IMG/VR virus record: IMGVR_UViG_2740892488_000005
Location: 1 to 8,791 of that record
DNA: 8,791 bases
Reading direction: 5' to 3' (one strand)
Source of the DNA: a virus
Lineage: Duplodnaviria > Heunggongvirae > Uroviricota > Caudoviricetes
In this document: one piece after another, positions 5,609 through 8,721 of the stretch
Position numbering within the stretch: position 1 is the first letter of the stretch
Layout: the number at the start of each line of letters is the position of its first letter
The notes under the pieces: generated by a model
Database searches by the model: none
What the model saw: only the letters and a program-made list of their open reading frames with translations
What the model was told of the DNA's origin: nothing
Made by a program: the position numbers and the translations under genes

Positions 5609-5829
5609 AAGAACTTTTTCTTGCATTTGTGCCCCGGTTTATTAATGACCAGATCGCACTGACTGATAATGGTGAACAATATGAAATTGCCTGCAGCATG
5701 GTGGATGTGAATCCTGGCGAACGGTATGACGCGATGTGTGACCTGAAAATATTTACCTGGCTGGGTTGGGCTATTCCGTGTGGAGAACCAACCAATATTC
5801 GTCCGTTTGAGAGCAGGGAGGCTGTATGA
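5605..5829 (+). CDS. Hypothetical protein, 74 aa
   Basis: ORF 5605..5829; ATGA overlap with the upstream stop, part of the coupled small-gene chain. Confidence 0.5.
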   Translation: MKELFLAFVPRFINDQIALTDNGEQYEIACSMVDVNPGERYDAMCDLKIFTWLGWAIPCGEPTNIRPFESREAV

Positions 5830-5942
5830 GTGAATTGAAAATACGTCGCAAGGCAATAGCACGCGTTAAAAATCTATTACCAGTGCCTGTCAAATATCGT
5901 TTTTGTGGTGGGAATGTACGGATTGGTACGGATGTATGGTGA
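5826..5942 (+). CDS. Possible small ORF, 38 aa
   Basis: ATG 5826 overlapping the upstream stop (ATGA), stop TGA at 5940-5942, translating MSELKIRRKAIARVKNLLPVPVKYRFCGGNVRIGTDVW. Only positional evidence. Confidence 0.3.
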   Translation: MSELKIRRKAIARVKNLLPVPVKYRFCGGNVRIGTDVW

Positions 5943-6016
5943 TTGCGGAGTGACGTAAAACGAATCGTTGTGGGTGTAATATCGTCAATATCATTGGTTT
6001 CCCGGAGGGAAAGGAC

Positions 6017-6238
6017 ATGTTTGGCGATAAACTGGAGTTACCACGGAACGGGCGGATAGTGCTCTATATTTCAGATTACAAAGTAACCCGGGCTGAGGTG
6101 TTGGAACCGGAAAAACATCTGGTCACGTTACCGGACATTATTGAGTTGTATAAGCGGGTCGGATATGTGGACTTGCATCGCGATGATGTTCCCGTTGAGT
6201 GTATGGAATGTGAACACCGGAGGTTTGAAGTTGATTGA
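6017..6238 (+). CDS. Hypothetical protein, 73 aa
   Basis: ORF 6017..6238 preceded by GGAGGGAAAGG; followed about 90 nt downstream by a terminator-like hairpin plus T7. Confidence 0.5.
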   Translation: MFGDKLELPRNGRIVLYISDYKVTRAEVLEPEKHLVTLPDIIELYKRVGYVDLHRDDVPVECMECEHRRFEVD

Positions 6239-6329
6239 ATTGACTTAGAAAAAGTCCGGGGCTATAGTTTCCGCGCAGCCGCAAAATCGGTTGCCGGGAT
6301 TGGCGTCCCGGATATCTAAGTGACGCATA

Positions 6330-6349
6330 GCCGCGTTAGCGGTTTTTTT
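6330..6349 (+). terminator. Putative intrinsic terminator closing the small-gene operon
   Basis: GCCGC (6330-6334) / loop GTTA / GCGG (6339-6342) followed by T7 (6343-6349). Short stem, moderate confidence. Confidence 0.45.
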
Positions 6350-6448
6350 ATGTGTTAGGCACGGCCACATTCGCATTATGGTGGGCTGTGTGGGGGCTTC
6401 TGTGGAAGCGCCGGGTTCACTTAGCCGGTTACGCCAACCCTGCACAGC

Positions 6449-6481
6449 TCACCACCAGATGATTGGCGTCGCTGGTGGTGA
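6449..6481. promoter_or_regulatory. Perfect 10-bp inverted repeat immediately upstream of the antirepressor start
   Basis: TCACCACCAG (6449-6458), 13-nt spacer ATGATTGGCGTCG, CTGGTGGTGA (6472-6481); right arm contains the Chi octamer GCTGGTGG (6471-6478). Antirepressor SD AAGTGAGG at 6495-6502 and ATG at 6511. Confidence 0.4.
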
Positions 6482-6510
6482 TGAAAAAAACACTAAGTGA
6501 GGCCACTGCG

Positions 6511-7300
6511 ATGACAGTCCAAATATCTGCGGAATCCCTTTCTCCGCTACATCATAACCAACTTCCCGTCATCACTACTGAATTGCTTGCCAGTTTGTAT
6601 GGCACGGAAGTAAATGGTATCCAGCAAAACTTCAAGCGCAACATCGCCAGATTTGTCGTAGGAAAGCATTTTTTTTAAGCTGGAAGGTAATGAATTACGC
6701 GACTTCAAAAACAGACTGACAGATAGTCAGTCAGTTGCTAAACATACCCGATCCCTCATTCTCTGGACAGAACGCGGCGCAGCTCGCCATGCCAAAATGC
6801 TGGAAACAGAACAGGCCTGGGAAGTTTTCGAAAAGCTGGAAGATTGTTATTTTAGCCAGCGTCCAGAGAGGCGGAGTACAACTACCGATGACCGTACTCC
6901 CTTGCGTGATGCCGTTAATATACTGGTCGGCAAGAAAGGCATGATGTATCCCGATGCCTACACCATGATTCATCAACGCTTCGCCGTCTCTCACATAGAA
7001 CAACTGTCACAGACGCAAATGTTAGAGGCGATTGAATACATCCACTGCCTGCTACTCGATGAAAATCACCCAACCATTCCAGATTTTTCTTTTATCACCA
7101 CTATCAAAAATGGAAAAGTGACCGGGATGCGCCATGTTGCCAAAGGCGAACATCTGATGACCTTTGACGCTTTCAAAGAGATCGCTGAGCGGGCAGGGTA
7201 TCTGGTGATCCACAGCGACAATCTGCGAAGTATGACACTGGATAAATTGATGGTAATGGGGAAAAAGTCGGCTATATCCGTTGCTAATTCAGCATTTTGA
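6511..7300 (+). pseudogene. Phage antirepressor-type regulatory protein, interrupted by a frameshift in a T8 run
   Basis: N-terminal part in frame 1 (6511-6678, ends GKHFF-stop) and C-terminal part in frame 2 (track ORF 6797..7300, open from 6677). Removing one T from T8 (6669-6676) gives a continuous ~262-aa protein with the conserved stretch GKHFFKLEGNELRDFKN...SLILWTERGAARHAKMLETEQAWEVFEKLEDCYF, which I recognise as antirepressor-like. Confidence 0.65.
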
Positions 7301-8294: not shown

Positions 8295-8420
8295 GAGAGC
8301 TGACTGGGTTATTTCCGAAGAACAACCGATCTCATCTTTTTTGTTATCTGAAGTGGTTTACTGAATTTGGCCACCTGAACAGAGGTGATATGCTCACCTC
8401 AGAACAACACAGGTGCCATA

Positions 8421-8721
8421 ATGAAAAAAAGAAATTTCAGCGCAGAGTTTAAACGCGAATCCGCTCAACTGGTCGTTGACCAGAATTACACCGTGGCAGA
8501 TGCAGCCAGCGCTATGGATGTCGGCCTTTCCACAATGACGCGATGGGTGAAACAATTACGTGATGAGCGGCAGGGAAAACACCAAAAGCCTCCCCTATTA
8601 CCCCGGAACAAATTGAAATCCGTGAGCTCAGGAAAAAGCTACAACGTATTGAAATGGAAAATGAAATATTAAAAAGGCTACCGCGCTCTTGATGTCAGAC
8701 TCCCTGAACAGTTCTCGATAA
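8421..8721 (+). pseudogene. IS3-family transposase OrfA (HTH plus leucine-zipper regulator), apparently frameshifted twice
   Basis: [53 protein letters not shown] in frame 3 (from 8421); expected continuation [27 protein letters not shown] in frame 2 from 8597; expected C-terminus [14 protein letters not shown] in frame 1 ending at TAA 8719-8721. Frame changes coincide with an A4 run (8576-8579) and the A5G slippery-site region (8671-8676). Confidence 0.65.

Follow-up and report, generated by a model that had tools for sequence, protein, structure and literature searches.

A probable P1/P7 immI-type RNA immunity module in front of an antirepressor-like gene of a lambdoid-type prophage

The antirepressor-like gene and the elements of its leader

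The window (the whole stretch of DNA that was analysed, 8,791 nucleotides in length) is a segment of a lambdoid-type E. coli prophage, with genes for an HTH repressor encoded at 912-1304 on the minus strand, a YdaS-like protein, a YdaT-like protein and a DnaB-type helicase, together with a fragment of an IS3-type transposase. It also carries an antirepressor-like gene, and the present report deals with the stretch in front of it, for which RefSeq holds no annotation from the upstream ORF to the ORF6N gene. The 301-bp region has 257 matches in phage records (mostly Stx-converting or other lambdoid phages, at 68-82% identity), and the wider region occurs with an identity of at least 99% in about 450 of 5426 complete E. 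coli genomes; the unannotated stretch itself is found in about 490 of them. No tRNA gene was found in the region and no tandem repeats in positions 1-900 of the window. The elements are as follows.

6240-6268, plus strand: sigma-70-like promoter (TTGACT and TATAGT with a spacer of 17; 10 of 12 matches)
6275-6294, plus strand: first hairpin of the c4-a1b1 motif (GCAGCCG/CAAAAU/CGGUUGC), from the Rfam c4-a1b1 and isrK alignments
6294-6311, plus strand: hairpin 1 (CCGGGA/TTGGCG/TCCCGG), the second hairpin of the c4-a1b1 motif
6329-6349, plus strand: intrinsic terminator from a terminator scan (AGCCGC GUUA GCGGUU followed by U7)
6374-6459, plus strand: C4 antisense RNA gene (RF01695; 75.2 bits, gathering score 45, full-length match to model positions 1-87)
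6379-6395/6438-6454, plus strand: C4 stem P1, a closing stem of 17 bp
6396-6409, plus strand: C4 stem P2
6410-6429, plus strand: C4 stem P3, with the loop sequence b' (TCACTTAG) at 6417-6424
6431-6437, plus strand: C4 sequence a' (ACGCCAA), single-stranded, in the junction
6454-6457, plus strand: C4 3' tail A-CCA, of a tRNA-like fold with an acceptor-like stem
6449-6481, plus strand: hairpin 2, with its 5' arm at 6449-6458, its 3' arm at 6472-6481 and the target a2 in the loop
6378-6500, plus strand: ORF of 40 codons overlapping C4, the positional counterpart of orf45 of Gifsy-1
6512-7300, plus strand: antirepressor-like gene coding for an ORF6N-domain protein (Pfam ORF6N, 77.6 bits)

The ORF6N protein is predicted to be an antirepressor from the annotation of its relatives. 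In the window the gene is frameshifted by one additional T (T8 at 6669-6676), while relatives have T7 and an intact protein of 262 amino acids (WP_001531776.1), so that the module described here may be regulating a dead gene. The 40-codon ORF has no obvious Shine-Dalgarno sequence (SD), and its TGA (6498-6500) lies where the target b2 overlaps the SD of the antirepressor-like gene, which leaves 11 nt between this stop and the ATG; we consider the ORF doubtful as a gene. Among 20 relatives the corresponding frame may stop as early as within C4 or be in frame with the antirepressor gene (ant), and this wide variation of the stop position led us to reject a conserved leader peptide, or an orf45-like gene, as a general feature of these loci.

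The promoter is the only promoter-like site that a promoter scan reports in 5800-6800. It lies upstream of hairpin 1 and aligns with the annotated P1 promoter TTGACC...TATAGT (P1c4, former P51b); the predicted transcription start, at about 6275, falls just where the isrK model has its position 1. An Rfam scan places a match to isrK (RF01394) at 6275-6349 (80.4 bits, gathering score 50) and one to c4-a1b1 (RF03163) at 6262-6314 (52.9 bits, gathering score 46.7). The second match has the expected parts of its family, that is two adjacent hairpins with the target a1 in the second one, and the target b1 5 nt past hairpin 1. The first of the two hairpins is paired in 93.7% of the alignment cells, with five of its seven pairs changed on both sides (alignment A3). 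As for the isrK match, its score is above gathering, and the terminator, with its hairpin at 6329-6344 and a T-run behind it, would close a short, IsrK-like RNA of about 75 nt (6275-6349); this hairpin with its T-run is present in 15 of 15 aligned loci.

The C4 match is supported in the same manner by its structure. The 27 pairs of stems P1, P2 and P3 are 100% paired in 13 sequences, with 13 of them changed on both sides, and the minimum-free-energy fold of 6374-6459 (-45.5 kcal/mol) is the same three-stem structure. Aligned to the annotated C4 of P1, the mature C4 of the window is predicted to be 6380-6456, 77 nt in length. P1 C4 is excised from a precursor by RNase P, and by analogy the same enzyme would cut the C4 of the window out of a longer transcript, leaving a stable RNA about 77 nt in length.

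These matches mean that the region read as a promoter in the preliminary description of this DNA, which was made from the letters only, is an RNA gene. A promoter had been placed there between the two hairpins, but the scan of 5800-6800 shows no promoter-like site from the terminator to hairpin 2. Hairpin 2 had further been put about 30 nt upstream of the SD, whereas the real gap is 15 nt to the SD and 30 nt to the ATG (6512). All the other sequence details hold on direct reading: the sequence of hairpin 1 and its position at 6294-6311, the perfect 10-bp stem of hairpin 2 (TCACCACCAG at 6449-6458 and CTGGTGGTGA at 6472-6481), its loop (13 nt, ATGATTGGCGTCG), a 10-mer shared by the two hairpins (GATTGGCGTC at 6298-6307 and 6461-6470) and a Chi octamer (GCTGGTGG) at 6471-6478. 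The terminator that the hairpins were said to bracket was recovered by the terminator scan at 6329-6349. One correction can be made to hairpin 1 itself, since its outer C-G pair (6294/6311) competes with the neighbouring hairpin 6275-6294; the stem conserved in the alignment of relatives is CGGG/CCCG, which is nearly invariant. The C4 gene, the b1/b2 pair and the fact that the SD is covered by b2 (and not by hairpin 2) had been overlooked in the preliminary description.

The shared 10-mer as part of two target sites for C4

The 10-mer contains the word TTGGCGT (at 6300 and 6463), which has its reverse complement between the two copies, at 6431, and this complement is a' of C4. A second word, CTAAGTGA (at 6316 and 6493), has in the same way its reverse complement at 6417-6424, where it forms b' (TCACTTAG). 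The leader thus contains two sets of sites, each with one copy upstream and one copy downstream of C4.

6298-6307, plus strand: target a1 (core TTGGCGT at 6300-6306), in the loop and 3' arm of hairpin 1
6316-6323, plus strand: target b1 (CTAAGTGA), complementary to the loop of C4 P3 and in the place of the annotated b1 of P1
6461-6470, plus strand: target a2 (core at 6463-6469), in the loop of hairpin 2
6493-6500, plus strand: target b2 (CTAAGTGA), overlapping the SD GTGAGG (6497-6502)

It had been stated from the outset that the lone 10-mer carries no significance by itself, and we agree: the window has 12 repeated 10-mers at a distance of up to 300 nt, against 3.5 expected from dinucleotide shuffles. 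The full arrangement with the complementary stretches of C4 is, on the contrary, far from chance, as two separate triples of word, complement and word were obtained in none of 5000 shuffles of 6262-6520.

Related loci were compared as well. We first assembled 20 C4 loci, among them 13 phage loci, P1 and five metagenomic viral loci, to which six bacterial loci reached via the antirepressor protein were later added, giving 26 in all. C4 is present in all 13 phage loci and in P1, and IsrK-type matches are present in all of these except P1. In 17 of the first 20 loci, an exact 7-nt complement of a' is found both about 71-82 nt upstream and 0-7 nt downstream of C4. Nine distinct a' sequences occur among these 20 loci, with almost no cross-matches between specificities, and the six further loci bring more of them (at least ten specificities across the 26 loci). 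Throughout the 26 loci, a1, a' and a2 change together: the a1:a' pairing is 100% paired in 14 sequences and the a':a2 pairing 98.9%, with five of seven pairs changed on both sides in each case. For the b sites, which shift by a few columns from one sequence to another, alignment pair counting was abandoned for that reason, and b1:b' and b':b2 were scored by searching each locus for its longest complement. Two other approaches were less useful. RNAduplex runs of the whole C4 against whole targets gave unrealistic, fully unfolded duplexes and were not used, and a scan of viral contigs with a degenerate C4-like pattern returned mostly chance matches, with 6 of 120 loci matching an nhmmer profile of the region.

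This base-for-base covariation bears the signature of RNA-RNA pairing rather than of protein binding. The two 10-mers are sites in the leader of the antirepressor operon that are targeted at the RNA level, namely a1 and a2. The suggestion had been made that they form an operator pair or a leader-RNA structure; the second half of it stands and the first does not, on the basis of the covariation with the complementary RNA stretch. Both hairpins, whose conservation had been singled out as a point to verify, are kept in the proteobacterial relatives with C4, and the loss of both where the antirepressor is kept was not seen among these C4-bearing proteobacterial relatives. The specificity is therefore determined by the shared 10-mer, and its need to match C4 accounts both for its duplication and for the differences between heteroimmune phages. 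The a site does not act alone in this respect. Loci with a common a' differ in b (CTAAGTGA, CTACTCAA, GAAAAAGG, CTAAAAGG, GTTATCGG and GATCAAGG), so that it is the pair of a and b that sets the specificity.

The proposed module and its known relatives

We think that 6240-6511 is very probably an RNA immunity module of the P1/P7 immI type, with the antirepressor-like gene behind it as the gene under its control. The locus itself shows that the families are matched, that the sites are complementary and covary in three ways, and that b2 lies on the SD, whereas the processing of C4, the translational repression and the decoy role of a1/b1 are proposed by analogy with P1/P7 and Gifsy-1. In this proposal, the single promoter at 6240-6268 would produce a transcript carrying a1 (in hairpin 1) and b1, followed by the terminator at 6329-6349. 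Terminated transcripts would give the short IsrK-like RNA, and those that read through would contain C4 (about 6380-6456), which would be processed from them. C4 would expose b' in the loop of P3 and a' in the junction, and these could pair with b2, on the SD of the antirepressor-like gene, and with a2, which hairpin 2 carries in its loop just past the 3' end of C4. Such a pairing would block translation of the antirepressor, and the prophage repressor would therefore stay active. Finally, a1 and b1, which have the same sequences as a2 and b2, could act as competitors for C4, either in cis or, on the short RNA, in trans, and thereby lift the repression. This competition idea is quoted from Citron & Schuster in the supplement of Weinberg 2010 (PMC2864571), which describes a', b', a1/b1 and a2/b2, and the same work places a1 inside a covarying two-hairpin motif.

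One of the closest known systems is the immI operon of P1/P7 (c4-icd-ant), with which the window aligns part for part and shares the order of parts. It was from P1 and P7 that C4 was originally described, and the operon is reportedly the subject of the work of Citron and Schuster in 1990. For P1, our comparison rests on the GenBank annotation (NC_005856), where the order is promoter P1c4, a1 (TTGACAG), b1 (GTTAGTGC), a terminator-like hairpin, C4 (77 nt, with b' TCACTAAC and a' CTGTCAA), a2 (TTGACAG, three bases past the 3' end of C4) and b2 (GTTAGTGA, on the SD of icd). The annotated b2 upstream of icd (GTTAGTGAGG) corresponds in its arrangement to the b2 of the window on its own SD. P1/P7 also fall into the same Rfam families, and a and b set the immunity specificity alike. 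The two systems nevertheless differ in the a/b sequences (TTGGCGT/CTAAGTGA in the window, TTGACAG/GTTAGTGA in P1), in the cargo (an ORF6N-domain protein instead of Ant1/Ant2) and in the host element (a lambdoid-type chromosomal prophage with an HTH repressor instead of a plasmid prophage with C1). They also differ in that P1 has icd between b2 and ant, whereas the window lacks icd and the ATG of its ant follows b2 by 11 nt; no ORF is present between b2 and ant in the window, and likewise none in lambdoid relatives. In P1, translation of icd is needed for the expression of ant, through Rho-dependent polarity. With no icd and with b2 placed on the SD of ant, the step downstream of C4 binding may therefore not be the same as in P1.

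The second known system is isrK-orf45-anrP of Gifsy-1, to which the upstream 75 nt of the window are related by their match to the IsrK family (80 bits) and by the terminator, and in which a read-through transcript leads into the antirepressor gene as it does in the window. According to Hershko-Shalev 2016 (PMC4825925), IsrK binds Hfq and activates antirepressor translation in trans, the short IsrK RNA raising the translation of AnrP more than 100-fold; G28 and G31 of IsrK pair with C162 and C159, and a processed RNA, STnc1160, arises downstream of IsrK. When mapped on the window, G28 and G31 fall in a1, C162 and C159 fall in a', and STnc1160 corresponds to C4; these experiments fit the competition model of P1/P7. 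The authors themselves favour a control via the translation of orf45 coupled to that of anrP, rather than the titration of a C4-like repressor (PMC4825925). The orf45 stop overlaps the anrP start, whereas its counterpart in the window stops 11 nt before the ATG. In the sections of that paper on the locus, orf45, the alternative structure and the discussion, C4, a2/b2 and hairpin 2 are not mentioned, and the structure model spans nucleotides 1-180, which means that it ends at the 3' end of C4 (PMC4825925).

Two other RNAs are worth comparing. The CI RNA of phage P4 (seqA/seqC), which the IsrK authors name as a structural analogue (PMC4825925), is processed from a leader and pairs with sites up- and downstream on the same transcript; it acts however by premature transcription termination of replication genes, and not by blocking the ribosome binding site of an antirepressor (PMC4825925). 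Copies of sRNA-Xcc1 (RF02221) take the same position before ORF6N-type ant genes; their closing stem is long, their 3' tail reads CACCAC, and unpaired stretches inside them complement sites upstream and by the SD. This RNA is absent from the window, belongs to an Rfam family of its own, for which the scan lists no clan, and is described in the literature as an integron-borne, trans-acting virulence sRNA.

Such a module is already known from immI of P1/P7, from three Rfam families and from isrK of Gifsy-1, and what we report is thus a confirmation and not a discovery. It does explain a stretch of unannotated DNA as an RNA-based immunity switch on which production of the prophage antirepressor would depend. 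Which prophages cross-repress each other's antirepressors should moreover be defined by their a and b sequences, and cataloguing these would therefore predict heteroimmunity groups among lambdoid and Stx prophages.

Hairpin 2 and its possible roles

The one loose end of this otherwise known module, and a minor one, is hairpin 2, which is conserved and captures the 3' end of C4. The 5' arm of hairpin 2 consists of the last 6 nt of the 3' strand of C4 P1, followed by CCA and a G. As this arm is shared with the closing stem of C4, hairpin 2 and the C4 fold are mutually exclusive. An alternative structure with a function of its own at this place is possible but unproven. The read-through leader might toggle between two states and so control the yield of repressor RNA from each transcript, a reading that we put forward tentatively. 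In the first state, the C4 fold, hairpin 1 and the terminator would be formed and C4 could mature. In the second one, a1 and b1 would pair in cis with a' and b' and the closing stem of C4 would be open; the freed 3' strand of C4 would then pair with 6472-6481, and a2 would be shown in the loop.

Several observations are in favour of such a toggle. When the 26 C4 loci are folded locally, 25 of them give an equivalent hairpin in which the 3' end of C4 takes part (in L157, the exception, no more than the final bases of the tail are paired), and two of these 25, L067 and L016, keep the hairpin without having a2 in its loop. The outer 8 bp of hairpin 2 are 100% paired in 13 aligned relatives, with three compensatory pairs; pairs of the outer stem are changed on both sides in Kp020009, L103, L144 and others, and in PhiR12_3 a three-way covariation has turned U6382/A6451/U6479 into C/G/C. 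If the full transcript is folded with the a1:a' pairing imposed on it, the structure has all ten pairs of hairpin 2 and none of the C4 P1 stem, at a cost of just 4.9 kcal/mol (-105.4 against the minimum of -110.3). In Gifsy-1, two conformers have been separated on native gels, and the translationally silent one, "structure A", resembles this forced fold of the window (PMC4825925). An occasional overlap between a downstream hairpin and the 3' half of the C4 P1 stem is also mentioned in Weinberg 2010 (PMC2864571).

On the other hand, the thermodynamic folds of the window RNA (both C4 with its leader and the whole transcript) give hairpin 2 an equilibrium probability of about zero, because the 17-bp closing stem of C4 occupies its 5' arm, and as this stem is transcribed first, it should win kinetically as well. 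The compensatory events are few (one or two sequences per pair), and the two innermost pairs occur in the window alone. The 3' arm of hairpin 2 and the 5' strand of C4 P1 complement the same strand and for that reason alone must resemble each other, so that an old duplication is a possible origin.

A stronger version would make hairpin 2 the conserved second state of a bistable leader, in which a given transcript either makes repressor RNA or serves as target and decoy. Once a1 and b1 were paired in cis, there would be no closing stem and RNase P could not release C4. We regard this version as rather unlikely. Among the sRNA-Xcc1 copies that stand in place of C4 before other ant genes, visual inspection shows a similar tail-capturing hairpin in three; if the idea of a bistable leader were true, phage immunity RNAs of this class would share such a hairpin as a general principle of design.

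It is very improbable that hairpin 2 is instead a terminator or attenuator that stops transcription before ant. Its perfect, G+C-rich stem of 10 bp would suit such a role, the equivalent hairpin of one locus (L090) is followed by T7, and predicted terminators overlap the C4 P1 stem in several cases according to Weinberg 2010 (PMC2864571). In the window, however, the stem is followed by UGAAAAAAAC and not by a U-run, for which reason we do not consider it to be a terminator; the terminator scan did not report hairpin 2, and the T-run is absent from most relatives too.

That the 10-mers are DNA operators for a prophage protein (the repressor or a Cro/YdaS-like or YdaT-like protein), with a promoter between them, is hardly credible: they do flank the region upstream of ant at a distance of about 160 bp, genes for an HTH repressor and for YdaS-like and YdaT-like proteins are present in the window, and P1 has a C1 operator (Op51) annotated at the immI promoter (NC_005856), but the sites are direct repeats and are not in themselves dyad-symmetric, the scan shows no promoter-like site at them or in the interval, the same sites adjoin unrelated types of repressor (in P1 and in lambdoid phages, for example), and a DNA-protein model does not predict an exact covariation with a C4 stretch over at least ten specificities.

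The Chi octamer in hairpin 2 is incidental. It is present because the stem of hairpin 2 must complement CCACCAG, and a functional Chi was rejected, as the octamer occurs at that place in 0 of 12 aligned relatives, which have GTTGGTGG, GCAGGTGG, GTCGGTGG or other sequences there.

Target sites and RNA elements upstream of antirepressor genes

Among the related loci compared with the window, the a2 site (the target downstream of the C4 antisense RNA that is complementary to the C4 stretch a') is imperfect in phage SfV (L011), where it reads ATTGCCGT against ATTGGCGT for the upstream site a1, and in L157 (TTTGACCG against TTTGACAG). In two further loci (L067 and L016) the hairpin that uses the 3' end of C4 is kept, although its loop carries no recognisable a2.

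Other ORF6N-type antirepressor (ant) genes have sRNA-Xcc1 (RF02221) instead of C4 upstream of them; we found six copies of it in five loci.

Copies of sRNA-Xcc1 in the place of C4
L140, 1077-1161: one copy
L141, 1065-1149: one copy
L142, 1072-1155 and 1643-1727: two copies
L145, 1073-1160: one copy
L003, 2234-2317: one copy

Their layout is like that of C4: the closing stem is long, the 3' tail reads CACCAC, and a single-stranded stretch has its complement upstream, at about -70 to -100. The complement of the internal loop adjoins the ant Shine-Dalgarno sequence in four of the six copies, and in three (L003, L140 and L142b), as read by eye, the 3' tail forms a short hairpin with the sequence directly downstream. 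In the literature that we found, sRNA-Xcc1 is described as an integron-borne virulence sRNA rather than a C4-type immunity RNA.

Tandem sets of two or three antirepressor genes occur in several Stx and lambdoid phages (for example 1759-2094 and 2356-3228 in L003, or 1758-2297 and 2792 onward in L005), and each gene is preceded by an RNA element of its own, be it C4, sRNA-Xcc1 or an Arc-like repressor gene.

Reading frames of the antirepressor-like genes

A +1 frameshift in the T-run at 6669-6676 breaks the antirepressor-like ORF6N gene of the window.

Pieces of the ORF6N gene in the window
6512-6678: first ORF
6797-7300: second ORF, after the frameshift

The run is T8 in the window versus T7 in the best-matching E. 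coli genomes, which encode an intact ORF6N protein of 262 aa (WP_001531776.1); either the window gene is a pseudogene, or T8 is a homopolymer sequencing error.

Two CDS annotated as antirepressor or "transcriptional regulator" start far upstream and have the IsrK-like and C4 RNA genes inside them.

Annotated CDS running through the RNA genes
L009, 1138-2280: Salmonella phage 118970_sal3
L011, 1132-1968: phage SfV orf37

They span the RNA genes because, by chance, no stop codon interrupts the ant frame across C4, and both are probably over-extended.

The two ends of the window

The roughly 900 bases (1-900) adjoining the HTH repressor gene contain no convincing ORF, and have no RefSeq annotation in identical genomes. 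GCTGGTCAGG occurs there three times (at 131, 166 and 188), and an RprA-like match on the minus strand (290-399) stays below the gathering score of 70, at 36 bits. At the right end, an IS3-family transposase orfA-like ORF (8385-8672; Pfam HTH_Tnp_1) suggests an insertion sequence within or adjoining the prophage.
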